This document shows, piece after piece, positions 1,062-42,335 of a stretch of 64,000 bases of DNA. The notes beneath the pieces are model-generated. The model saw only the letters and a list, made by a program, of their open reading frames with translations. It ran no database searches and was not told the DNA's origin. Source of the DNA: Escherichia phage ZX4221; the sequence record OR498728.1. One strand, given 5' to 3'. Within the stretch, counting starts at the first letter, position 1; each line of letters starts with the position of its first letter. The position numbers and the translations under genes were made by a program.

Positions 1062-2414
1062 ATGTGGAATCCAATTGTTAATGTAGATATTACATTGAAC
1101 ACCGCAGGAACTACAAGAGAAGGTTTTGGGCTACCACTATTTTTAGCTTCAACAGATAACTTTGAAGAAAGAGTCCGTGGTTACACTTCCTTAACTGAAG
1201 TTGCTGAAGATTTCGATGAAAACTCTGCTGCATATAAGGCTGCTAAACAACTTTGGAGTCAGACTCCTAAAGTAACCCAGCTTTATATTGGTAGACGTGC
1301 TATGCAGTACACTGTATCAATTCCTGACTCTGTTACTGAAAGTACCGATTATTCTTTAACTGTAGCTGTTAGAGGTGGAGTTTCTCAACCATTCCAGTAC
1401 ACTTCACAGTCAGAAGATACTGCTGAGAAGGTGTTACAGCAGCTTAAAACACAGATTGAAGCAGAACCTTCTGTAAAAGACCTTGTTACTGTCAATGTAA
1501 CTGGTACTGGTGGTTCAGCAACAATGGTAATCACCAAAGCTGGTGACAACGACTTCGTGAAGGTTACTACTACAGCACAAACAGTGTCAATTGCAAGCAC
1601 AACTGCTGACACAGCATCGACTGCTCTGGCAGCTATTGAAGCTTATTCGACTGACTGGTATTTCATTGCAGCAGAAGACAGAACTCAACAGTTTGTCTTA
1701 GCAATGGCTTCTGAGATTCAAGCTCGTAAGAAGATTTTCTTTACAGCTAACTCTGATGTAGCAGCACTGCAAGGTACAGAATTAGCCAGTGCAAATGACG
1801 TTCCAGCACAACTTGCTAAGAATAAGTACACTCGTACAGTTTGCTTGTGGCATCACACAGCAGCAGAAGATTATCCAGAAATGGCATACATTGCTTATGG
1901 TGCTCCATATGATGCAGGTTCAATTGCTTGGGGTAACGCACAGTTAACTGGTGTAGCTGCTTCTCTACAGCCATCTAATCAAAGACCTCTGACAAGTATT
2001 CAGAAGTCAGCTTTAGATGCACGTCACTGTAACTTTATTGACCTTGATGGTGGTGTTCCAGTGGTTCGTAGAGGGATTACTTCTGGTGGGGAATGGATTG
2101 ATATCATCCGTGGTGTTGACTGGTTAGAATCAGACCTGAAAACTTCTCTGAGAGACTTGCTAATTAACCAGAAGGGTGGTAAGATTACTTATGATGATAC
2201 TGGTATTACCCGTATTCGTCAAGTCATTGAAACCTCTCTGCAAAGAGCAGTCAACAGAAACTTCCTGTCATCTTACACAGTTAATGTTCCTAAAGCCTCT
2301 CAAGTTGCTTTAGCAGACAAGAAAGCTCGTATCCTGAAAGATGTTACCTTCGCAGGTATCTTAGCAGGGGCTATCTTGGATGTTGACTTGAAAGGTACAG
2401 TGGCTTACGAATAA
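1062..2414 (+). CDS. tail sheath protein (putative)
   Basis: 450 aa, immediately upstream of 148 aa tube-sized ORF, chaperone pair and tape measure; canonical contractile-tail gene order; RBS AAGGGG. Confidence 0.55.
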   Translation: MWNPIVNVDITLNTAGTTREGFGLPLFLASTDNFEERVRGYTSLTEVAEDFDENSAAYKAAKQLWSQTPKVTQLYIGRRAMQYTVSIPDSVTESTDYSLTVAVRGGVSQPFQYTSQSEDTAEKVLQQLKTQIEAEPSVKDLVTVNVTGTGGSATMVITKAGDNDFVKVTTTAQTVSIASTTADTASTALAAIEAYSTDWYFIAAEDRTQQFVLAMASEIQARKKIFFTANSDVAALQGTELASANDVPAQLAKNKYTRTVCLWHHTAAEDYPEMAYIAYGAPYDAGSIAWGNAQLTGVAASLQPSNQRPLTSIQKSALDARHCNFIDLDGGVPVVRRGITSGGEWIDIIRGVDWLESDLKTSLRDLLINQKGGKITYDDTGITRIRQVIETSLQRAVNRNFLSSYTVNVPKASQVALADKKARILKDVTFAGILAGAILDVDLKGTVAYE

Positions 2415-2429
2415 TAGAGGTAAATTGGA

Positions 2430-2876
2430 ATGGCTATGTATCAGCAATATTCCCCTAAAGACGTTGTGTGTAGCTGGAATGGTATTGCCATTGAAGGCTT
2501 TGCCCCAGACTCATTCTTACGTCTACAGAGAACATCACCACTTGTGACACCAGTTGTAGGTGCAGGTGGTCAAGTTGCTCTGACAAGAAATGCAGACAAG
2601 ACAGGTACTATTGAGATTGAGCTAATGCAGACTTCTCTCTCTAATCAGATGCTTTCTGCAATTCAAGCTAAACAAGACAATATGGAACTTGAAGAAGATA
2701 TCTCTTCTAACTTCGTAATCTACGACCCATCAGGCTCTGTTCTGGCAACTGGTATTAATGCTTGGTTGCAGGAACTACCACAGATTGAACTTGGTCGTGA
2801 CCAGAACTCTAAAACTTGGATTTTTGGTTGTGAGAAGCTAGACTACACTTCTACAATTCCAGCGTCAAGTGTTTAA
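2430..2876 (+). CDS. tail tube protein (putative)
   Basis: 148 aa ORF between sheath-sized gene and chaperone/tape-measure genes; followed by strong terminator. Confidence 0.5.
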   Translation: MAMYQQYSPKDVVCSWNGIAIEGFAPDSFLRLQRTSPLVTPVVGAGGQVALTRNADKTGTIEIELMQTSLSNQMLSAIQAKQDNMELEEDISSNFVIYDPSGSVLATGINAWLQELPQIELGRDQNSKTWIFGCEKLDYTSTIPASSV

Positions 2877-2888
2877 TAAATCCTATAA

Positions 2889-2920
2889 GGGGGAGACTTT
2901 AAAAGGTCTTCCCCTTTTTT
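2889..2920 (+). terminator. rho-independent terminator-like hairpin
   Basis: GGGGGAGAC / GTCTTCCCC stem followed by TTTTTT. Confidence 0.6.
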
Positions 2921-2949
2921 GTTTCTTTTAAAAGTATTAAGGAATCACA

Positions 2950-3348
2950 ATGAAAACAGAAGCTAGAGTAATTAATGGTAAGAAAGTAAATATCGTTCTG
3001 CTTGGGGCAAGAGATGGTATTAAGATGTCTATGAAGTTGGGTAAAATTGTTGTTCCAACCTTTGCACAGATGCTGTCAAGCCTGACTGATAAAGATAAGA
3101 AAGAAGCTCCAATGGTTCCATTTAAAGAACTTGTTGAGGCTTGTTTTGACAGAATTGAAGAAATTAACCTTGAAGAAATGGCTACCCTGCTATTTCAAGG
3201 GGCAACTGTTGATGACTTCCCACTTAATATTGATACATACTTCCAAGCAAACTATGGCGAATTTATTGATTACTTAGCATTTGCGCTGGAGGCAAACTTC
3301 GGAAGTTTTTTCGAAGCAAGCATTTTCAAAAGCCTAACTTCTCAGTAA
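2950..3348 (+). CDS. tail assembly chaperone (putative, G-like)
   Basis: 132 aa ORF between tube and tape measure; contains slippery TTTTTTC near 3' end. Confidence 0.45.
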   Translation: MKTEARVINGKKVNIVLLGARDGIKMSMKLGKIVVPTFAQMLSSLTDKDKKEAPMVPFKELVEACFDRIEEINLEEMATLLFQGATVDDFPLNIDTYFQANYGEFIDYLAFALEANFGSFFEASIFKSLTSQ

Positions 3349-3350
3349 AC

Positions 3351-3589
3351 ATGGGTAACACTCTACAGACACCACTAACTGATGCTGCTGTAGAGGCAAC
3401 CTATGAAGAAGCAGACGAGATGAAATTTGTGCTTGCTATTTATGGTATGGAAGGGTGTAAAGAAACACTTGACCAACTCTTTGCTATGACATTCTCTGAT
3501 TTATTATCATTGAGACAATTTCTTGAAATTCAGAGGTCGTATAAAGAGGAAATTGCTTACAACGAACTTAGAAGAGCAGGAAAAATGTA

Positions 3590-3590
<1 letters not shown>
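3351..3590 (+). CDS. tail assembly chaperone frameshift extension (putative GT-like C-terminal part)
   Basis: 79 aa ORF in -1 frame relative to upstream ORF; -1 frame is open from 3270 through 3351; weak own RBS. Confidence 0.4.
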
Positions 3591-8977
<5,387 letters not shown>

Positions 8978-8978
<1 letters not shown>

Positions 8979-10447
8979 TGGCAGGATTAACTACAACAGG
9001 ATTACAAACTCTAAGATATCAGGAGATTTTTGATAATATCAAATCAAGACTTCTTAGAGATATTTCACCCAACCTTGACGTTTCTGAAGATAGCCAATTA
9101 GGACTCTTCCTAGCTTCAATTGCAAGGTCTTTAGCAGATACTCATGAGATTCTATCAGAAATCTACGATGGGGGTACAATTGATAAGGCTGAAGGCTTTA
9201 ACCTTGATGATATTACAGCTTTAAATGCGGTATACAGATATGTTGCTCAGGCAACAAGAGGTCAAGTTGAGTTTACTGGAACGACTGGTGCTACCATTCC
9301 TTCAACAACAAGATTAAGAAGTACTGCCGGAAACATCTTTTATCCAGTTAATAATATTACCCTTACTCCATCATATTGTGTTGAAGCTATCCTTGAAGTT
9401 AACTCTTTACGAACTGATGCAGATTATGTTATTATTATTGATAACGTCATTTTCTCATATAAACCAACCTCATCAGACACAATCACCACGCTTCTAACAA
9501 AATTAGCAGAAGCTATTAATGGTGGTATTGTAGCAAAAGCAGAAGTCATTAATGATGGAGCCTCACTAAGAGTCTATAAAGAAGAGGGTGATATCATTGC
9601 AAGAACAAACCCTATGGTTGTCACTGCAACAACATTTCTGACCTTTACAAAAATTACAACTATTTCAGATGTAGTAGCTGAAGAGGTTGGTGCTACCCCT
9701 GCTTTGGCTGGTACGCTTATTGAGATTGAGACAACTGTTGATGGTCTTGACAGTATTTATAACAGGTATGACTTAACAACTGGTAGAAACGAAGAAACTG
9801 ACACAGAACTTAGACAGAGATATTTAGAATCTTTAGCAGTTACTGGTGTAGGGACTTTGGATGCAATTGTAGCTGCTGTTAAAAGAGTTCAAGGTGTCTC
9901 AGATGCTTCAGGTGTTGAGAATGATACTGAAGAGACAAGCTCAGAAGGTCTTCCACCAAAATCTTTTAAGATTGTTGTAGTTGGTGGTCAAAATGATAAT
10001 GTTGCTCAAGCAATCTGGGATACAAAACCTGCTGGTATTAGGGCTTATGGCTCAATTTTTGGTACAGCCCATGATTTAGGTGGTTTGGCACATAATATTT
10101 ATTTTAGCAGACCAACACCAAAATACGCATTTGTTAAAGTCTCTTACTCTTTATATGATGAAGAAAGCTTGACAATCCCTGAAGAGGATATCAGAGACAG
10201 CATTGTACAAGGTATTAATGCTTATGGGAGAACTCTTAAGGTTGGTAATGATGTTATCCCTAACAGAATCTATGGATATATCTATGACGTAATTAAAGGT
10301 ATTGAGATTAATGAGGTTAAAGTAGCCTTATCAAACAGTCAATCAGTCCCACCTAGTGACGGGCAGTATACTACAGCAAGAATTACTGTTGACGGTGACC
10401 AATATACTGTTTGGGAAAGCAGCCAGTATACCATCACTAAGGAGTAA
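8978..10447 (+). CDS. baseplate J-like protein (putative)
   Basis: 489 aa following gp25-sized ORF; synteny. Confidence 0.45.
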
Positions 10448-10449
10448 TA

Positions 10450-11304
10450 ATGTTTGAAAAGATTGATAGTGTTTATTACAAAACACTTGATGAAAGGACT
10501 GTAACACAGTTTAAAGATAAATTTATCTATACAAGTATCTTGAAAGCAATCACTGATGAATTACAAACTCTAGAGGATGTTTGCTGGCAGATGCACACAG
10601 AGAGAAATATCAGGACGTCAGTAGGCCAACAACTTGATAACATTGGCTCACTGATTAAAGTTCCTAGACCTTTAGGTGCAGATGATGAAACATATAGGGC
10701 TATGCTTTATATCCAAATCTTCCTAAGACGCTCTGACACCACCCCAACATTCTTGCAAAAAGCAATTATGACGCTATATGGTGCAACTTTCTCTCAGATT
10801 TTTGAGCATATTACTCCTAAGACTGGTGGTATCGTTATCCGTATCAACACTAGAAAAAGCGTTCTAGATGCTGCATATACATTGTCAAAGATTTCTGCAA
10901 CAACTACTGGCTCCGCTGTCATCTTAAGAGATGTTACTTTAAATGGAACTGCTTGGACTCCTGTAGAGGTTGCTGATTCATCACTTGCTATTGTTGATGA
11001 TAAAGAGAACTGGTTTGTAACTGATGCTAACAGAGGTCTTGTCACAAATAACACTGGTGGCTCTCTGGAATCCAACTTAGTAGGTAGTCTTGCAGATGCT
11101 GGTGTTATTGATGGTTACTTTAGGGTTGACAGAACAGCAAACTCACAGAGTGATGATTATATGACTGTAGATAGGTCCAATAATAGTGGCTATTTCATCG
11201 TTGGTAAAGAAGCTATCGCAGGTGGTGCATATGGAATCATGGCTGAGGTTGCACAAATTGTCAAAGGCAGAAAAGATAAATCACAACAAGAAGGAAATTC
11301 TTAA
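10450..11304 (+). CDS. baseplate/tail fibre attachment protein (hypothetical)
   Basis: 284 aa between J-like and fibre genes. Confidence 0.35.
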
Positions 11305-11606
11305 TGGCAGTTTTAAATTGGTCTACAAATGAAGTAGATACTGATGGTAACCAGTTAAAAGTTTTACCACCACCGGAAGTTCAAGAGACAGGTCTTTTAA
11401 AGGGTGAACCTATGGGTAGGCAGTGGTTCAACTATATTATCAACTACCTGCTTAATAAAGTAAACGGCACTGTTGGTGAAGTTCGCTCATATGCAACTGA
11501 GCAACCAGATTTAGTGGCTAATGGCTGGAATCTGATTAAATCTGAGACAGGGACTGCATCAACAAGTACAGGAAACCTTTACACATATGAATATGTAGGA
11601 GCTTAA
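11304..11606 (+). CDS. hypothetical tail protein
   Basis: 100 aa coupled ORF. Confidence 0.3.
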
Positions 11607-11608
11607 TA

Positions 11609-12784
11609 ATGGCAGTAGGTGAAATTCAAATTAGTGCCTTGCCACAAGCGGCCTTACCAGTTGATTTAAGTGATATCTTCCACCTTAAGCAAGGTGTTGA
11701 GGATAAAAGATGTACGCTTGAACAGTTGTTAGCACCTCACGCATCTCTGAGGAATAATCCTCATGGTGTAACTAAATCACAAGTGGGTCTTGATAATGTT
11801 ATTAACTCTCTCCAATTAGTTGCAGCCAATAACTTGTCAGACATTGTGAATGTTGCTGAGGCAAGAGCAAATCTACAAATTATGTCGTCAGAAGAAGTGA
11901 ATAACTCAATTCAGCAACATATTGACGACAAAAGTAACCCACACAATACAACGAAAGCACAGGTAGGTTTAAGTAATGTTCAGAACTGGACAACATCTAA
12001 TCTGTACAATGAAGATGCTGATAAGTACGCTACCGCGAGAGCAGTGAATAATTTATACAAAGCTATTCAAGCATCATATCCAGTAGGGACTATTCACCTA
12101 TCTGTTAACTCTGCCAACCCATCCACTTACTTGCTTTGTGGAGGTACTTGGGAGTTAGTTTCTAAAGGTAGAGCACTGGTTGGTTATGATACAGATTCTA
12201 GACCTGTTGGTTCAACTTTTGGTTCTCAGACTGTAGTATTGACAAATAACAATTTACCAGCACATACTCACTCTATCTATCTAACAGGGGGTGGTCATAC
12301 ACACTCTGCAAGTGTATCTATCTCTAGTTTTGATTATGGTTCAAAGAGTACATCAACTTTTGACTACGGTACGAAGGCAACTAACAGTGCTGGTGCTCAC
12401 ACCCACACATTTAGTGGAACGACAAGTAATGCTGGTAACCACAACCATAGAGTACCTCTGAGGGGTAATGATAGAAGTGGGTCAAATGCTATTACCGCAT
12501 CTGCTGATGCTGGGGTTGGTAATGCTTCATATACTGACTTAGCTGGTGCTCACACCCATAGCTTCTCAGGTACAACTGCATCATCTGGTGCTCATAGTCA
12601 TACTGTTGCAATTGGTGCTCACAGCCACACTGTCAATATTGGTTCACACAGTCATACGGGCACTGTTACTGTTTCTAGCTCTGAGCATACACACTCAGGG
12701 ACATCTGGTTCTGTTGGTGGTGGTCAAGCTTTCAGTGTTGAGCAGCCATCTTTTGTAGTATATGTGTGGCAGAGAACAGCTTAA
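11609..12784 (+). CDS. tail fibre protein with His-x-His repeat tip
   Basis: N-terminal repeats NPHGVTKSQVGLDNV / NPHNTTKAQVGLSNV; C-terminal GAHTHTFSG, GAHSHTV repeats; C-terminus shared with next gene. Confidence 0.65.
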   Translation: MAVGEIQISALPQAALPVDLSDIFHLKQGVEDKRCTLEQLLAPHASLRNNPHGVTKSQVGLDNVINSLQLVAANNLSDIVNVAEARANLQIMSSEEVNNSIQQHIDDKSNPHNTTKAQVGLSNVQNWTTSNLYNEDADKYATARAVNNLYKAIQASYPVGTIHLSVNSANPSTYLLCGGTWELVSKGRALVGYDTDSRPVGSTFGSQTVVLTNNNLPAHTHSIYLTGGGHTHSASVSISSFDYGSKSTSTFDYGTKATNSAGAHTHTFSGTTSNAGNHNHRVPLRGNDRSGSNAITASADAGVGNASYTDLAGAHTHSFSGTTASSGAHSHTVAIGAHSHTVNIGSHSHTGTVTVSSSEHTHSGTSGSVGGGQAFSVEQPSFVVYVWQRTA

Positions 12785-12792
12785 TTTCTTTA

Positions 12793-12814
12793 CAGGGGCT
12801 TTGTAGCCCCTTTT
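12793..12814 (+). terminator. terminator-like hairpin
   Basis: GGGGCT-TTGT-AGCCCC then TTTT. Confidence 0.5.
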
Positions 12815-12830
12815 AAGAGGAAAATTTATA

Positions 12831-15380
12831 ATGGCAGATTACAAATTGAGTCAATTAAACTCAATCGACACAATTCGTTCAGAAGACCTATTGCACATCA
12901 GAGTTAAGAAAAGACCTGAAATGTTGGGTGACGAAGACCGTAGAATGACCTATCAAGACTTCTTAGCTTCCTTCAAACTAGAAAGGTTTGTTCAGATTGC
13001 TGGGAGTACTATGGTTGGGGATTTAGGTATTGTCAAGTTACTTTACGGTGGTAAGGCAGTATTTGACCCAACAGGCTCTTCTGAGATTACTATTGGGGAT
13101 ATTTTAAAGACTTTTAAAATTAACTCAAATGGGCTTAAACTCACTATTGCAGATGCCACAAGGTCGGCAACTGTTTATCATACTTTGAATAAACCAAGCC
13201 CTAATGAACTTGGTATGAGAACTAATGAAGAGAATGATGCAAGATATGCAAGGCTTGCTGTTACAAACACATTCTCTGGGACTCAGAACATTCAAGGTGA
13301 TGCTAACTTACTTCGCCTTAGAAACCGAAATGCAAACAATGCACAATACATTGAAGGTGTAAACCCAGATGGTTCAGCTAGATGGTGGGTTGGTATTGGT
13401 AGCAATGGTTCTGACGAAGTAAAACTGTACAATAACAAATACAACTCAGTCTTGACTGTTGCAAGTAATATCTCTGTTAATAAGTCTTTAGCAATCACTG
13501 GACAAGTCCAACCTTCAGATTTCTCTAACTTAGATGCTAGATACTTTACTCAGACAGTTGCTAATCAGAGATTTGCACAGTTAGCTGGCAATAATACTTT
13601 TACAGGTGCTAACACATTTAGGACTATGAGTGTTATTTCAAATGCTGCTGCTATCACACTGCAATGTGCATCAGCAAACGAATCACTGTATCTACTTGCA
13701 AAAGATTATGAAGGTGGAAACTTATGGTATCTTGGTAAAGGTAGTTCAGGTGCTGGTGTAACTATCTACAACTATACCACTAACACCTCTTTGGTCTTAG
13801 ATGCTGCTGGAGTATCAGCAAATAAAAATGTCAGAATCACTGGACAAGTTCAACCTTCAGATTGGGCTAACATTGACTCTAGATATATTCCGGCAGCAAC
13901 ATTAAGTACAATTGCAAGAACTAATGCAAGGAATACTTTTAATGGTGTACAGACAGTTGTTACGGATAATGAAGGTCTGATTGTTAAAAACTCTACTCAG
14001 AATAGACCATTATATATTCGTGGTGTGGACACTGCTAATGTATCAAGATGGTGGATTGGTGTTGGTGGTGCTGATACGAATGATGTTACCCTAAATAACA
14101 GTTATTCTGGAACCCAATTGGTTCTCGGGAATACAACATCATACATTAACAAAACATTGACTATTGCTGGACAAGTTCAACCTTCAGATTTTTCTAACTT
14201 AGATGCTAGATACTTTACGCAAAGTGCTAGTGATAGCAGATACCTAAGAATCAGAAGCACTAGCTTCAATGTGGGAAACACTGAGAAGTGGGCTAAAATT
14301 GCCACTGTTGTGATGCCACAATCAGCATCAACTGCTGTTATTGAGGTATTTGGTGGGTCAGGTTTTAATATTAATACACCACAACAAGCAGGTAAATGTG
14401 AAATTGTTCTGCGAACTTCAAATAACAATCCAAAGGGCTTAAATGTTGTTGCTTGGAGAACATCAGATAACACCATCGTCAGGGATATTGGTTATGTGAA
14501 TACTTCTGGAGACACCTATGATATTTACTATCTTGCTGGTACGTATCAAAACAGCACAACGACAAGGGTTCAGTCTTCTAGGAATGCAAGTGTACAGTTG
14601 TTTGAAGTCCCACAGACATTTGATGATGCTCCACAAGGTATTGTGAAGGGTACAATTGCAAAATACTACACAAGTTTGCAAAAACCAACCCCTTCAGATA
14701 TTGGTGCATACACTAAAGCAGAGACTGACCAGAAGATTGCAGATGCAATTAGTGACTCTACAGACCTGAATAAAATCTATCCAGTAGGTATTGTGACGTG
14801 GTTTAACAGCAATGTTAACCCTAATACAGCACTTCCTGGGTTAACTTGGACGTACCTGAACAATGGTGTTGGTAGAACTATTAGGATTGCAGCAGCAAAT
14901 GGTTCAGATGTTGCTACAACTGGTGGTTCAGATTCTGTAACGTTATCTGTTGGTAACTTACCTTCACACACGCATAGTTTCTATGCTACCACTTCATCAT
15001 TTGATTATGGTACTAAGACGACAAATACGACTGGCAACCATGCTCATGATAGAGGTAACATGGAAATTTCTGGTGTGTTTGGTTGGTTCAGAAGTGATAA
15101 CGGTGCATTCTACACTGCTAGTGGTGCATTTGTGATGGGTGGTAGTCAGGCTTCGCATGGCTTCACAGGCTCTAACTTCACTTATGGTGCGCCTGTTGAT
15201 TTCCACGCGTCAAGAACTTGGACAGGTGTAACCAACACGACTGGTAACCACGCCCACAGTGTAGGTATTGGCGCTCACAGCCACACAGTTAGTGGTAACA
15301 CAGGTGGTACTGGTTCTGGTTCAGCATTTAGTGTTACTAACCAGTTCTATAAGCTAATGGCTTGGGTAAGAACTGCTTAA
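12831..15380 (+). CDS. long tail fibre protein
   Basis: 849 aa; three internal repeats of ITGQVQPSDFSNLDARYFTQ; C-terminal HxH motifs and terminal AFSV...W.RTA shared with 11609..12784. Confidence 0.7.
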   Translation: MADYKLSQLNSIDTIRSEDLLHIRVKKRPEMLGDEDRRMTYQDFLASFKLERFVQIAGSTMVGDLGIVKLLYGGKAVFDPTGSSEITIGDILKTFKINSNGLKLTIADATRSATVYHTLNKPSPNELGMRTNEENDARYARLAVTNTFSGTQNIQGDANLLRLRNRNANNAQYIEGVNPDGSARWWVGIGSNGSDEVKLYNNKYNSVLTVASNISVNKSLAITGQVQPSDFSNLDARYFTQTVANQRFAQLAGNNTFTGANTFRTMSVISNAAAITLQCASANESLYLLAKDYEGGNLWYLGKGSSGAGVTIYNYTTNTSLVLDAAGVSANKNVRITGQVQPSDWANIDSRYIPAATLSTIARTNARNTFNGVQTVVTDNEGLIVKNSTQNRPLYIRGVDTANVSRWWIGVGGADTNDVTLNNSYSGTQLVLGNTTSYINKTLTIAGQVQPSDFSNLDARYFTQSASDSRYLRIRSTSFNVGNTEKWAKIATVVMPQSASTAVIEVFGGSGFNINTPQQAGKCEIVLRTSNNNPKGLNVVAWRTSDNTIVRDIGYVNTSGDTYDIYYLAGTYQNSTTTRVQSSRNASVQLFEVPQTFDDAPQGIVKGTIAKYYTSLQKPTPSDIGAYTKAETDQKIADAISDSTDLNKIYPVGIVTWFNSNVNPNTALPGLTWTYLNNGVGRTIRIAAANGSDVATTGGSDSVTLSVGNLPSHTHSFYATTSSFDYGTKTTNTTGNHAHDRGNMEISGVFGWFRSDNGAFYTASGAFVMGGSQASHGFTGSNFTYGAPVDFHASRTWTGVTNTTGNHAHSVGIGAHSHTVSGNTGGTGSGSAFSVTNQFYKLMAWVRTA

Positions 15381-15387
15381 TCCCTTG

Positions 15388-15416
15388 TTGACTGATTGTT
15401 AAGATGGTGTTAATAT
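15388..15416 (+). promoter_or_regulatory. sigma70-like promoter candidate (TTGACT-17-TAATAT)
   Basis: TTGACT at 15388-15393, 17 nt spacer, TAATAT at 15411-15416; overlaps 9 bp inverted repeat AAGATGGTG/CACCATCTT. Confidence 0.45.
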
Positions 15417-15459
15417 TCTTTATGGGTATTCTCACCATCTTGGCTGATGAGGTGATTAA

Positions 15460-15657
15460 ATGCCTACAATCCTAGCAATTCTTCTAAAAAATCTAGGTAG
15501 CTTCTTCTGGAAACTCATTTTATCCCTTCTAAGTGAATACATGATTGAGAAAGTGTTCTTTAAGCTTGCAAGATATCTTGCGAGTAAAACAGACACACCT
15601 ATTGATGATGAGTTCGTAGATAACTTAGAAAAAGCTTTTAAGGGGGAGAATAAATGA
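15460..15657 (+). CDS. small hydrophobic protein (hypothetical)
   Basis: 65 aa, hydrophobic N-terminus, RBS GAGGTG. Confidence 0.3.
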   Translation: MPTILAILLKNLGSFFWKLILSLLSEYMIEKVFFKLARYLASKTDTPIDDEFVDNLEKAFKGENK

Positions 15658-16025
15658 AGTGGCTAGAGGAAGCTTTTAAAAATAATATTGGTGCAATTGT
15701 AGTTGGTATTTTTAGTGTTATTGGGATGTATACCACCATGCAAGTCTCGGATGGTAAGCAAGAAGTGTCTGTCACAACAAAGTTACAGCAGCTAGATAAT
15801 TATAGCAAATCTAATTACTCAGCTATTCGTGATTTACAGTCTGACATGAGACTGATTCAGCTAGGGATGGAGAACCAGAAAGTTCAGTTAGAGAATGTTA
15901 AGGGTGAGAATGCAAAACTTACTAAGACTCTTGATAAATTCTCTGACAGTGTGAACAATCTGGCTCAATCAGTATCAGCCTTGCAAGCTATTACTGAAAA
16001 GAACACAAAGAATACTGAAAAATAA
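15654..16025 (+). CDS. membrane-anchored coiled-coil protein (hypothetical)
   Basis: 123 aa, single hydrophobic segment IGAIVVGIFSVIGMY then heptad-like region; ATGA overlap with previous ORF. Confidence 0.3.
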   Translation: MKWLEEAFKNNIGAIVVGIFSVIGMYTTMQVSDGKQEVSVTTKLQQLDNYSKSNYSAIRDLQSDMRLIQLGMENQKVQLENVKGENAKLTKTLDKFSDSVNNLAQSVSALQAITEKNTKNTEK

Positions 16026-16030
16026 AATTT

Positions 16031-16060
16031 AAGGCTCCTTTTTACGGGAGCCTTTTTGTT
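16031..16060. terminator. bidirectional terminator hairpin between convergent genes
   Basis: GGCTCC-TTTTTAC-GGGAGCC flanked by T-runs on both strands. Confidence 0.6.
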
Positions 16061-16960
16061 TTACTTGCCTACTGACAGAGGTGCTTCAATCTTACCTGCA
16101 TGTTGGTAGTTATTAATCCCACCAATAAAATCACTTGCTGTAAGATGTTTTAAGTCACTTAAAGTGTTAAGTGAGATACCAATCTCAAAAGTTGGTGCAT
16201 GGAACTCTTCATTGTTCATCAGTTCATAAACCTGTTTCATATGGTTCTGATAAATCTGAGTATCTCCAAAGACACCTATCAAGTACCGTGGAGTGTATCC
16301 AGTCATCTTACAAAGAACTTCCAGAATAAAACCGTAAGATGCAATATTAAACGGAAGTCCTAAAAAGGTGTCTACTGAACGTTGATACCATTGTAAGTCA
16401 ACTTCACCCTCGTTAGTGATATAAATCTGAAACAGAACATGACAAGGTGCTAAAGCCATTGAGTTTGCTGCAATATCTGCTGCATTCCAAGCATTAACAA
16501 GCATGTAACGGTCTGTGATATCACCCTTCATCTTCGCTACTAAGGTCTCTAGTTGGTCTACAACACAACCATTATGACCTTCAAAGTTTCTCCACTGAAC
16601 TCCGTAGATTCTTCCACCTGCATCTTCTAACCAATCTTGTTCAGAGGAATAATTAGAGCTTAACCAGCGTTTAAAATCGTCTGACCAGATTGTCCAGCGT
16701 TCTCCATCATTTTCACCCCAAGTACGGTAACGGAGTTCACCCAGCTTATTCTCACCGTTCAGAAACCATAAAGCTTCACCGATAACTTGTCGTGTAAACA
16801 CCTGTTTAGATGTTAAGAGTGGGAAACCAGTTCGCATATCAAAACGAAACTGAGGTGGAGCAAATGCAGAGATAACATCTCCAGTTCGTGTAGTACGCAG
16901 TTCACCAACTGATAAAACATGGTTCAGAATATTTTTGTAACTTGTATCTGCTTGTGACAT
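16061..16960 (-). CDS. thyA: thymidylate synthase
   Basis: 299 aa; active-site context LAPCHVLFQ and overall ThyA-like sequence. Confidence 0.8.
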   Translation of the reverse strand: MSQADTSYKNILNHVLSVGELRTTRTGDVISAFAPPQFRFDMRTGFPLLTSKQVFTRQVIGEALWFLNGENKLGELRYRTWGENDGERWTIWSDDFKRWLSSNYSSEQDWLEDAGGRIYGVQWRNFEGHNGCVVDQLETLVAKMKGDITDRYMLVNAWNAADIAANSMALAPCHVLFQIYITNEGEVDLQWYQRSVDTFLGLPFNIASYGFILEVLCKMTGYTPRYLIGVFGDTQIYQNHMKQVYELMNNEEFHAPTFEIGISLNTLSDLKHLTASDFIGGINNYQHAGKIEAPLSVGK

Positions 16961-40190: not shown

Positions 40191-42335
40191 ATGAACAAAG
40201 TACAGATTATTAAAAAGAACGGCTCACTTGAAGAACCTGATATCAAAAAAGTTTTAGCAGCAGTAACTAAGTCAGCTAACAGAGTTGGGTATAAAGAACT
40301 CCCACCAGATGTTACCCAAGCTCTTGAGTCAGCATTTATGAGGATTCTGGTAAAGTCCACTAAGCAGAATAATTTGCTCATCTCGGTAAACGATATTCAC
40401 AGTATTGTTGAAGGTGCTTTGGCAGAAGTCAATCACGAGATTTATGAGTCTTACTCAACATACAGAAATTACCGTAAAGAGGTTGCTCAAAATTGGGATG
40501 AGCTTTACCAAAAGACTAAAGACACACTCTTCTTAGGTGACCGTGAAAACGCTAACTTTGACAGTAGTTTAATTTCTACAAAAGGCTCAATTATTCGTGG
40601 TTACCTGACTAAAGAAATCTTTAAACAGTACCATTTAACACCAGAGGAACTTGAAGCCATTGAAAAAGGGTTTATCTACATCCATGACTTAAGAGACCTA
40701 ATTTTTGGTGGGATTAACTGTTGCCTGTTTGACATTGGTAGAGTACTGAAAGGTGGCTTTGAAATGTCTGGCATCGAATACTGTGAACCGAAGTCTGTAC
40801 TGTCAGCCTTACAGGTTATCGGTGATGTAGTTCTTTCAGCAACTGCACAGCAATTTGGTGGCTTTACTTTAGCAGAGATTGACAAGGTGCTTGTACCGTA
40901 TGCTAAGAAGTCTCTACGCTATCATGCTGAGAAAGCAGCATCTTACGGTATTCCTAAAGAACATTACCATAATTATGTCATGGAGCAGCTACAGATTGAA
41001 TTAACTCAAGGTTTCCAGTCACTAGAGATGAAGCTAAATACTGTACCTTGTAGCCGTGGTGATTTCGCATTCACAACTTTAACATTTGGTTTACTTGACT
41101 CAGACATGTCTAATGAAGACAACCGACTACAATACATGATTGCAAACACCATTCTTGATGTTCGCATGAATGGACAAGGTAAGAGCAAGAAGCCTGTTGT
41201 ATTCCCTAAACTGGTTTATATTCATGACCAGAAGAGACACGATGAGAATATCTGTCAAGGTCAACTGTACAGTAAAGCTATTGAGTGTTGCTCTAAAGCT
41301 ATGTATCCAGATTTCTTAAGTGTATCTGGTCATGGTGCTGTAGCAGAGGCTTTTGAGCGTTCTGGCAAGGTAATTTCACCGATGGGTTGCAGAGCTTTCT
41401 TATCCCCATATCTTAACGAGAATGGAGAAGAGTTCTACGTTGGTCGTGCTAATATTGGTGCTGTATCTTTGAACTTACCTATGATTTACCAGTATTCTAA
41501 AGAGAATGGTTTAGATTTCTGGAAAGAACTTGATAAGTACCTAGAGATGATTCGCAGCTTCCACAAGAAACGCTACGAAATGATTGCTAATATGTCAGCA
41601 AGTTCTAACCCTCTTGCATTCACACAAGGTGGTTTGTACAAAGGAACTAAAAAACCTACCGACAAGGTTGGTTGGGATATCGTGAAGTCCTTCACAGCTT
41701 CTTTTGGGGTTACTGCGCTTGATGAGTTGTCTGTTCTTGCTGAAGGTAAACGACTCCATGAAGTTGGAAGTTCTAGTTTTGCATACGATGTTCTGGCATA
41801 CATTAACATGAAAACTGAAGAGTTTAAGAATGAAGATGGCTTCCTGTATGCAGTATATGGCACTCCAGCAGAGTCATTGTGTGGAACTCAGCTAAAACAG
41901 TTCAGAGATATGTTTGGTGTTATCAAAGGCGTTTCTGACAAGGAATACTTTACAAACAGTTTCCATATGAATGTTGCAGCAAACATTTCACCATTTGAGA
42001 AGCAGGACTTAGAAGAGCCATTCTTCCACATCTGTAGAGGTGGCAGAATCCAGTATGTAAGGGTAGCTAACCCAGAAAACTTAACAGCACTTAAAAGTTG
42101 TATTACCAGAGGGATGTTGAAAGGTTTTTATCAGGGGCTTAACTTTGACTTAGCAATCTGTGAGCATTGTGGTAACAGACCAAAGGCTGATGTTGAAGAA
42201 TGTGAGGTTTGCCATTCACATGATATCTCTGTGATTAACAGGGTGTGTGGTTATCTTGGATGGACTAAGATTAAAGGTGAATCCCGAATGAATGATGCAA
42301 AAATTGCTGAGATTCGTGACAGAGTTTCTATGTAA
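40191..42335 (+). CDS. nrdD: anaerobic ribonucleoside-triphosphate reductase
   Basis: 714 aa; ATP-cone N-terminus; C-terminal Zn site CEHCG...CEVCH and glycyl-radical motif RVCGY. Confidence 0.85.
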   Translation: MNKVQIIKKNGSLEEPDIKKVLAAVTKSANRVGYKELPPDVTQALESAFMRILVKSTKQNNLLISVNDIHSIVEGALAEVNHEIYESYSTYRNYRKEVAQNWDELYQKTKDTLFLGDRENANFDSSLISTKGSIIRGYLTKEIFKQYHLTPEELEAIEKGFIYIHDLRDLIFGGINCCLFDIGRVLKGGFEMSGIEYCEPKSVLSALQVIGDVVLSATAQQFGGFTLAEIDKVLVPYAKKSLRYHAEKAASYGIPKEHYHNYVMEQLQIELTQGFQSLEMKLNTVPCSRGDFAFTTLTFGLLDSDMSNEDNRLQYMIANTILDVRMNGQGKSKKPVVFPKLVYIHDQKRHDENICQGQLYSKAIECCSKAMYPDFLSVSGHGAVAEAFERSGKVISPMGCRAFLSPYLNENGEEFYVGRANIGAVSLNLPMIYQYSKENGLDFWKELDKYLEMIRSFHKKRYEMIANMSASSNPLAFTQGGLYKGTKKPTDKVGWDIVKSFTASFGVTALDELSVLAEGKRLHEVGSSSFAYDVLAYINMKTEEFKNEDGFLYAVYGTPAESLCGTQLKQFRDMFGVIKGVSDKEYFTNSFHMNVAANISPFEKQDLEEPFFHICRGGRIQYVRVANPENLTALKSCITRGMLKGFYQGLNFDLAICEHCGNRPKADVEECEVCHSHDISVINRVCGYLGWTKIKGESRMNDAKIAEIRDRVSM

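Follow-up and report, generated by a model that had tools for sequence, protein, structure and literature searches.

Conserved motifs and probable mosaic exchange in the T4-type tail-fibre genes of Escherichia phage ZX4221

Escherichia phage ZX4221 carries two adjacent tail-fibre genes, at positions 11609 to 15380 of the 64,000-nucleotide (nt) stretch that we analyzed (record OR498728.1; hereafter the window). Their products share histidine-rich motifs, and the longer one contains internal repeats. Are these motifs and repeats the places at which fibre parts are exchanged between phages? The explanation that fits best overall, and that we regard as very likely, joins T4-type tips, serial shaft domains and mosaic exchange at the fibre locus of the genus Felixounavirus. 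A conserved framework (linkers, collar, FDYGTK motif, His-box strands and C terminus) alternates with variable cassettes (shaft domains, a fifth domain and the head). Because the framework is conserved between the variable cassettes, co-infecting relatives may be able to swap them by homologous recombination without breaking the fold.

The short fibre gene spans 11609..12784 and encodes 391 amino acids (aa); the long fibre gene spans 12831..15380 and encodes 849 aa. Both open reading frames (ORFs) lie on the + strand, as do all fibre features given below, and they are orthologues of wV8 gp82 and gp83, each annotated "tail fiber protein" and each 94% identical to its ZX4221 counterpart. Among PHROG families the short fibre matched phrog_2097 (tail fibre, E 3e-137), its aa 41-152 also matching many tail-protein families, and the long fibre matched phrog_4277 over aa 1-849 (E 0). 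By exact look-up, the short fibre protein is identical to WAX24978.1 of phage DE17 and to WNV46076.1 of ZX4221; the long fibre is WNV46077.1, annotated "hypothetical protein ZX4221_51," and is the sole member of its own 90%-identity cluster. A DNA search with the region matched 234 phage records, almost all of them Ounavirinae, the best over the whole region being KEP2 (96.4% nt identity), vB_EcoM_H12 (96.1%) and wV8 (94%). Upstream of the fibres lie a Baseplate_J protein (8978-10447, by Pfam), a baseplate protein of 284 aa and an ORF of 100 aa; downstream are two small ORFs and then a convergent thymidylate synthase gene on the opposite strand. When ORF maps were compared with wV8 and 16 other loci, this gene order was common to wV8. 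The DNA search assigns the window to Felixounavirus. On this basis of homology, the ORF pair is identified as the short and long baseplate fibre genes of a Felix O1-like coliphage, and the initial annotation, made from the letters alone, was right to call both products tail fibres.

A structural counterpart exists in the same genus. The cryo-electron microscopy study of Bas63 (Escherichia phage JohannRWettstein; Sci Adv 2025) describes short gp26 and long gp27 tail fibres (PMC12609058). The ZX4221 order of baseplate wedge subunit, baseplate protein, 100-aa ORF, short fibre and long fibre fits Bas63 gp23-gp27, and judged by gene order and description the two ZX4221 genes are the counterparts of gp26 and gp27.

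What do the two products have in common? By alignment, both end in a T4 gp37-type receptor-binding module made of a collar, a His-box needle and a head. The short fibre gave the stronger match. Searched against the PDB with phmmer, it matched 2XGF, the T4 gp37 tip, over aa 146-362 (E 2.3e-27), and gp10 chains were matched as well; Pfam Gp10_C was found at aa 154-276 (E 1.3e-18, 68.7 bits against a cut-off of 27). The collar (aa 146-218, 12044..12262), which aligns with 2XGF and with the gp10 C-terminal domain, corresponds to T4 gp37 D10. It is followed by a descending needle strand (12263..12448) with H-x-H boxes at aa 219, 230, 264 and 278 and two FDYG(S/T)K motifs, and then by the head, the predicted receptor contact (aa 281-314, 12449..12550; 2XGF alignment, offset +133). 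In an ungapped block of that alignment, H278/H280 fall on T4 H929/H931 and aa 281-308 on the T4 tip, 932-959. The ascending strand (12551..12694) carries boxes at aa 315, 329, 338, 347 and 360 and includes a 27-nt tandem repeat at 12586-12651 (2.4 copies, 76% matches) that encodes 9-aa GAHSHTV(A/N)I rungs. Homologues carry two to four such rungs, and needle length may vary by 9-aa steps. The C-terminal segment (12695..12781), ending in AFSVEQPSFVVYVWQRTA and predicted to return to the collar, is conserved in 18/18 short fibres.

The long fibre repeats this plan. Its collar (aa 641-712, 14751..14966) was recognized by Pfam Gp10_C (aa 647-750, 27.8 bits, cut-off 27), and 2XGF was matched over aa 710-828 (E 6e-8). 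The descending strand (14967..15047) has H-x-H boxes at aa 713 and 737 and the FDYGTK motif; the 67-aa head, again the predicted receptor contact, covers aa 740-806 (15048..15248), with identity breaks in five relatives at 15034 and 15241; the ascending strand (15249..15326) has boxes at aa 807 and 816. A C-terminal segment (15327..15377) ends in GSGSAFSVTNQFYKLMAWVRTA and, by T4 topology, would also return to the collar. In an alignment of 99 homologues of this tip, many of them prophage-like fibres of Erwinia, Mixta, Photorhabdus, Xenorhabdus, Providencia and others, boxes 2 to 4 and the glycine preceding each are invariant and box 1 is nearly so. The collar YPVG..W..P and other columns are invariant too, as are L, M and W of the C-terminal L-M-x-W-x-R, with R nearly so. 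The stretch between boxes 2 and 3 is 29-71 aa long and has no conservation. Invariant boxes around an insert of variable length are, in these aligned sequences, the signature of a fixed scaffold bearing a variable head.

T4 gp37 indicates how such a module may be threaded. Its collar D10 is formed by residues 811-881 and 1010-1026, with the needle D11 (882-1009) inserted into D10; within D11 the stem is 882-931 and 960-1009, the tip 932-959 binds lipopolysaccharide (LPS) and OmpC, and seven iron ions are held by histidines (PMC6957217). Each T4 box, contributed by three chains, holds one iron ion through six histidines. In ZX4221, each chain of a presumed trimer would run from the collar down a six-stranded needle to the head at the far end, then back up and into the collar. 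The G-x-H-x-H boxes would be internal rungs that hold the needle together; the short fibre has four along its descending strand and five along its ascending one, the long fibre two on each, and metal binding by these fibres would be expected by analogy with T4. The heads would be the parts that touch the receptor, which is probably LPS, as stated for the genus, and variation in the fibres may, by analogy with T4, affect host range. Host labels are no clue to specificity because both long fibre head sub-types occur in phages isolated on O157:H7, that of the window in KEP2 and the other in wV8, KEP3 and HY02. By the same analogy with T4 and Bas63, the C terminus would pack back into the collar. 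The initial annotation had recognized a T4-type fibre tip, and both 2XGF matches and the Bas63 description agree. It had called the shared segment a C-terminal tip; the His-box module is there, but the topology is different, since the C terminus is predicted to lie back in the collar and the head between the strands.

How unusual are the histidine boxes themselves? The nine H-x-H boxes of the short fibre and the four of the long compare with means of 1.4 and 0.16 after residue shuffling, and the observed counts were reached in 0/20000 shuffles. No other window ORF of at least 80 aa has more than two; the sole other one with more than one box is 40191-42335 (714 aa), which has two. The endings are alike as well, ...GGGQAFSVEQPSFVVYVWQRTA in the short fibre and ...GSGSAFSVTNQFYKLMAWVRTA in the long, so that the proposed shared His-rich motif and AFSV...W.RTA-type ending are present in both proteins.

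At the DNA level, the 20-mer GGTGCTCACAGCCACACTGT at 12614 recurs with two mismatches at 15270. Allowing up to three mismatches, it has four hits in the 64 kb, all within the two fibre genes, against 0.01 expected. Is this identity of 18/20 a mark of recent exchange? Random codings of the heptapeptide GAHSHTV with ZX4221 codon usage share a mean of 15.8 positions and equal the observed value with P = 0.15. Hence, because the shared peptide predicts an identity of 18/20, the DNA adds no evidence beyond the protein motif, and we rejected the 20-bp identity as a mark of recent exchange. The near-identity pointed out in the initial annotation is thus real, but it signifies no more than a shared peptide. 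Other islands common to both genes are FDYG(S/T)K (12329 and 15000) and CTGGTAACCAC..CA (12432 and 15241). A literature search combining His boxes, tail fibre and recombination found no paper.

The internal repeats belong to the shaft of the long fibre, which would be a string of beta domains, each closed by a linker of the ITGQVQPSDFSNLDARYFTQ type. An N-terminal region with a degenerate first shaft unit (aa 1-145, 12831..13265) ends in the degenerate linker PSPNELGMRTNEENDARY (nt 13194, aa 122). It is 80-100% conserved up to about 13267 in all Felixounavirus relatives and, by comparison with Bas63, would bind the baseplate. Shaft domains R1-R3 follow (aa 146-257, 258-370 and 371-478; 13266..14264). 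They are three stretches of Pfam PF20744 (gp37_trimer; E 6.8e-77, 254 bits, cut-off 21.7), about 110 aa each, with pairwise identities of 32-42%, and the ITGQVQPSDFSNLDARYFTQ copies are their conserved ends. Linker copy 1, ITGQVQPSDFSNLDARYFTQT (13494..13556, aa 222), is an island of 92-100% identity in Felixounavirus relatives between variable cassettes. Copy 2, ITGQVQPSDWANIDSRYIPAA (13836..13898, aa 336), is diverged and forms the right edge of cassettes in HMD-P10/Tf and in wV8. Copy 3, IAGQVQPSDFSNLDARYFTQS (14163..14225, aa 445), is where the identity of SP22, PHB11, DE17 and FO1a collapses, just 3' of it at 14214-14230. The fifth domain is closed by a degenerate linker at aa 619 (PTPSDIGAYTKAETDQKI); at this fifth linker, mapped as PTPSDIGAYTKAETDQKIADAI (14685..14750), conservation resumes: from about 14680 identity is back to 87-100% in Felixounavirus relatives, while Mooglevirus and Suspvirus stay at 63-80%. 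The shaft also gave a weak match to the T7 gp17 pyramid region, 4A0T/4A0U (E 0.01 for ZX4221, 3e-5 for PHB11).

The three linker copies had been noted initially, and they were confirmed, like every other element of that annotation, with coordinates shifted by 3-4 nt. Copies 1 and 3 are alike in 19/20 aa over the motif and copy 2 has diverged (ITGQVQPSDWANIDSRYIPA); as 60-nt repeats, 13497 is identical to 14166 at 53/60 positions and to 13839 at 44/60. Perhaps unequal crossing-over between such repeats alters their copy number, and fibre length rather than cassette content tunes host range? The long fibres of relatives do differ by about 60 aa (779-849 aa), a 27-nt tandem repeat does encode the His-box rungs, and the 63 nt encoding linker copies 1 and 3 are more alike than their peptides need (55 identical, 47.6 predicted, P = 0.006). 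However, three PF20744 stretches occur in ZX4221 and in each of the four relatives scanned (PHB11, DE17, Tf and FO1a), the shaft units are only 32-42% identical, the length difference stems from a different source described below, and a number of repeats that varies within the genus is not reported in the Bas63 paper (PMC12609058). We consequently rejected variation in repeat copy number, and we hold this account of host range to be very improbable beside exchange of cassettes. Mutagenesis by a diversity-generating retroelement was rejected as well: the mismatches between linkers 1 and 3 are mixed (A>G, C>T, T>G, G>A and others) with no adenine-specific pattern, and variation among relatives arrives as whole cassettes. 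The wV8 annotation shows no reverse transcriptase in the 15.8 kb surrounding its fibre genes, although none was searched for.

Where, then, does the difference in length arise? Sorted by length, the long fibres of relatives form classes of about 780-790, 812 and 843-849 aa, which differ in the stretch from linker copy 3 to the fifth linker. Here ZX4221 has a fifth domain (about aa 479-618, 14265..14684), a predicted beta-sandwich in a long form that many relatives replace with a shorter, PF12604-type domain. The long form of about 155 aa is found in ZX4221, wV8, KEP2, KEP3, H12, HY02, finno and BPS17W1; the short form of about 95 aa is found in PHB11, FO1a, DE17, SP22 and others, and was PF12604 in 3/3 scanned (PHB11, FO1a and DE17). 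With a third form in phage Tf, the region 14230-14680 has at least three alternative forms. We conclude that the length classes, some 60 aa apart, exist because of alternative fifth-domain forms. The PHB11 fibre matched an 8JU3 chain in the PDB ("Tail fiber protein S, S'"; E 1.6e-25). Sequence searches of Pfam and the PDB with the long form found no match. Its structural model, a beta-sandwich of moderate confidence (pLDDT 69.6), resembles part of Pantoea WceF (6TGF) and carbohydrate-binding modules, and a sugar-binding role is possible, as a guess from this model. Modules about 40% identical to the long form occur in tail fibres of Salmonella prophages. A 276-aa partial protein labelled Pseudomonas aeruginosa (P0001) is 86% identical to the fifth domain and 93% to the collar; its 829-nt contig probably comes from a Felixounavirus, the assembly having been mislabelled or contaminated.

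We compared the fibre loci of 17 relatives with that of ZX4221 by blastn and 60-nt sliding identity. Breaks in identity recurred in the short fibre at 12376 and 12586; in the long fibre shaft at 13250-13267, 13477-13494, about 13620, 13810-13870, 13930, 14214-14222 and 14679-14684; and around the long fibre head at 15034 and 15241-15243. Every recurrent break coincides with a conserved island: FDYGTK, a His box, the NTF(T/N)G sequence that opens a shaft unit, or one of the linkers, of which there are five. The head-spanning cassettes so defined are 12377-12585 in the short fibre, where finno and SUSP2 fall to 30-42% identity solely at this cassette, and 15035-15240 in the long fibre. HMD-P10 and Tf have in common a cassette of 92-98% identity placed exactly between linker copies 1 and 2. 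The repeats were present in all relatives, and mosaic boundaries lay at the linkers, FDYGTK and His boxes; the check for boundaries at the repeats that the initial annotation had proposed thus came out positive.

Individual relatives show how abrupt the changes are. DE17 is 100% identical over 10450-13270 and about 40% identical immediately after. H12 is 98-100% identical over 12790-15000 and 65-82% in the long fibre head. PHB11 is 100% identical over 15010-15370 and unalignable over 13270-13500 and 13930-14650. The long fibre head of ZX4221 itself is 100% identical to that of PHB11 and 53-82% identical to those of H12 and wV8. Shigella phage Silverhawkium, a Mooglevirus, is 93-97% identical only over 15070-15250, with flanks at 60-80%, a pattern suggesting that a head cassette has crossed from one genus to another. 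Maximum chi-square tests on triplets of the window and two parents placed a DE17-like to H12-like break at 13110-13208 and an H12-like to PHB11-like break at 14747-14807, each with 0/2000 permutations as extreme. Sites in unalignable stretches are not independent and inflate the chi-square counts, and the statistic overstates the support. Judged from these comparisons, the ZX4221 fibre locus is a three-parent mosaic: DE17-like as far as about 13200, H12-like from there to about 14750 and PHB11-like beyond.

Could the same picture have arisen with no exchange, the motifs being kept for the fold and the segments that separate them changing in place through point mutations favoured by diversifying selection? 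The conserved islands are structural elements (linkers, putative metal-binding rungs), the 18/20 His-box identity is accounted for by the peptide, and point variation does occur within one head type (SGSNAITASAD / GGTNAITASAD / SGGDAITASAY). However, point mutation alone does not explain the mosaic because identity shifts abruptly and the closest relative differs from segment to segment. DE17 loses its identity across the single boundary at 13270; DE17, then H12, then PHB11 is the nearest relative; no permutation equalled the chi-square breaks; and a nearly identical head sits between dissimilar flanks in another genus. We find divergence in place scarcely credible and prefer exchange of cassettes.

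If heads move between phages, might they also move between the two fibre genes of one phage? Clustering of the heads of both fibres from 18 phages gave at least four types for the short fibre and five for the long. Felix O1 (FO1a) carries the same head on its short (2053-3219) and long (3270-5609) fibres, with 82% aa identity. At the DNA level these heads share 87-98% identity along most of a stretch of about 180 nt (blastn, 271 nt at 81.6%), while the collars of the two fibres are only 36-58% identical. The copied segment spans FDYGTK to a His box. These identities indicate that a head was transferred between the two fibre genes of FO1a. The FDYGTK and His-box islands are plausible footholds there because they are the sole sequences common to both genes, and islands of this kind may let a head move from one fibre to the other. 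A tail-fibre protein of Escherichia phage REP7 (P0024) has a head region very similar in sequence to the stem and tip of T4 gp37, which suggests head exchange between Felixounavirus and T4-like phages.

Several observations weigh against the reading of T4-type tips joined by exchange at short motifs. An AlphaFold2 monomer of the long fibre tip (aa 640-849, from the 99-sequence alignment) reached a pLDDT of 66 and a pTM of 0.37, with the head below a pLDDT of 50, values for a form in which an interlaced trimer cannot be modelled; a Foldseek search of this monomer against the PDB found nothing at E <= 0.001, the top, nonsignificant hits being gp10 C-terminal domains. The 2XGF alignment ends at aa 362 of the short fibre and leaves the last 30 or so residues, those that would return to the collar, uncovered. 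Besides the inflated chi-square counts, the position of breaks beside conserved motifs is partly an artefact of how islands appear in identity plots. The two latest crossovers of ZX4221 map to the N-terminal region and to the collar, both of them long and conserved, and not to the 20-bp His box. Between its own two genes ZX4221 has no sign of exchange: the short and long heads are unrelated (31-33% nt identity), and the His-box identity is as the peptide predicts. The earlier suggestion that the repeats are substrates for recombination is supported in the main: cassette edges coincide with them, with the two recent crossovers in ZX4221 as a caveat. It seems that the short islands mark the edges of cassettes and that homologous recombination uses the longest conserved flank.

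Would ongoing gene conversion between the paralogous fibre genes (concerted evolution), instead of shared ancestry and constraint, account for the likeness of the two tips in ZX4221? Felix O1 does show a head cassette copied between both genes, and islands of 20-56 nt at 73-100% identity are common to both genes in nearly all relatives examined. In ZX4221, however, DNA similarity between the two genes goes no further than one stretch of 46 nt at 78% and another of 23 nt at 91%; collar identity is 45-56%, and the heads and the His-box DNA give no hint of copying. Ongoing conversion is therefore an unlikely source of the likeness in this phage, for which we favour shared ancestry with constraint. 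A broader proposal is that the long fibre carries two independently exchangeable specificity modules, the head (aa 740-806) and a lateral sugar-binding fifth domain above the collar, with heads moving between the fibre genes via the FDYGTK and His-box islands. We put this forward tentatively and consider it rather doubtful as a whole; if true, one phage could redirect its two fibres, either to one common receptor or to different ones.

How does this locus compare with systems already described? Each Bas63 fibre ends in a tip like that of T4 gp37, with a collar, a six-stranded HxH needle, a head and a chain that doubles back; the long one has five serial beta-domains ("beta-helix repeat domains") with helix-and-turn linkers, which correspond to the units and linkers of ZX4221. 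Across the genus, tips and shaft domains were the most variable fibre parts, and the beta domains were compared with the T4 gp34 rod. The paper counts seven H-x-H motifs in the short and six in the long Bas63 fibre, compared with nine and four in ZX4221 (PMC12609058). An HHxH motif suggests that the Bas63 long fibre head is of the finno/SUSP2 type, whereas ZX4221 has the 67-aa type on a shorter needle. The PhageMaP paper contains nothing on Bas63 fibres. With T4 gp37 (2XGF), homology extends across the collar, FDYGTK, the His boxes and the tip, and the plan of a needle inserted into a collar is the same. However, gp37 is the distal quarter of a jointed fibre of four proteins and needs the chaperones gp38 and gp57A, features of T4, whereas ZX4221 has the tip module on single-protein fibres encoded by two genes in one phage, with a different number of rungs and a different head size.

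The exchange of segments also has precedent. In T-even adhesins, the hypervariable specificity segments are bordered by conserved motifs, in or near which exchanges take place; ZX4221 has the same layout and the same kind of breakpoint. Modular shuffling in T-even phages was described by Tetart et al. in 1996 and 1998 and summarised by Trojet et al. in 2011 (PMC3157838). It was shown by genetic crosses with a host-range read-out, whereas here exchange is deduced from genome comparison. Exchange between both fibre genes of one genome, as in Felix O1, is extra relative to the T-even model. Since architecture and exchange at conserved motifs were already known from Bas63 (2025) and from T-even work in the 1990s, our finding is ordinary and adds no new principle. 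What it adds is a cassette map with coordinates, a three-parent ancestry, the shared head on the Felix O1 fibres and the alternative fifth domain. These fibres govern attachment to strains of E. coli, Shigella and Salmonella, and Felix O1-like phages are used in typing, biocontrol and therapy. The map (short head 12377-12585, long head 15035-15240, fifth domain about 14230-14680, shaft units delimited by linkers) shows natural recombinant joins and, with them, where engineered swaps are likely to fold.

Some smaller features complete the locus. Two NPHxxTKxQVGLxNV shaft motifs were found in the short fibre by a regular-expression scan, at 11756-11800 and 11936-11980. In the 46-nt gap between the fibre genes, a hairpin (GGGGCT-TTGT-AGCCCC, then TTTT) lies at 12795..12814 on the + strand, and in wV8 a rho-independent terminator is annotated at the matching position. 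The hairpin might reduce transcription of the long fibre relative to the short one. A consensus scan for promoters and terminators over 11200-16100 gave hits no commoner than in shuffled sequence; its terminator consensus requires at least five T, so this hairpin was missed. Scans for tRNAs and Rfam families on both strands of 11000-16200 found nothing. Small ORFs on the opposite strand have no support and were set aside as chance ORFs, as was a 70-aa +1-frame ORF (12546-12758) within the part of the short fibre gene that encodes His boxes; this ORF is rich in L, H and V, as an out-of-frame reading of repeated codons predicts.

The 100-aa ORF immediately 5' of the short fibre gene (11304-11606) belongs to phrog_4141, to which no function is assigned, and matches the Bas63 "LTF platform" gp25 by gene order only; the Bas63 paper likens gp25 to T4 gp9 (PMC12609058). 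Downstream of the long fibre gene, at 15460-16025 and 16031-16054, lie two small ORFs (65 and 123 aa) and then a two-way, terminator-like hairpin. In relatives these ORFs are annotated as a hypothetical protein and, for the second ORF in several relatives, as a holin. Among Felixounavirus relatives their identity is 97-100% nearly throughout, with a dip to 80-98% at 15730-15850, and their conservation contrasts sharply with the mosaic fibre genes beside them.

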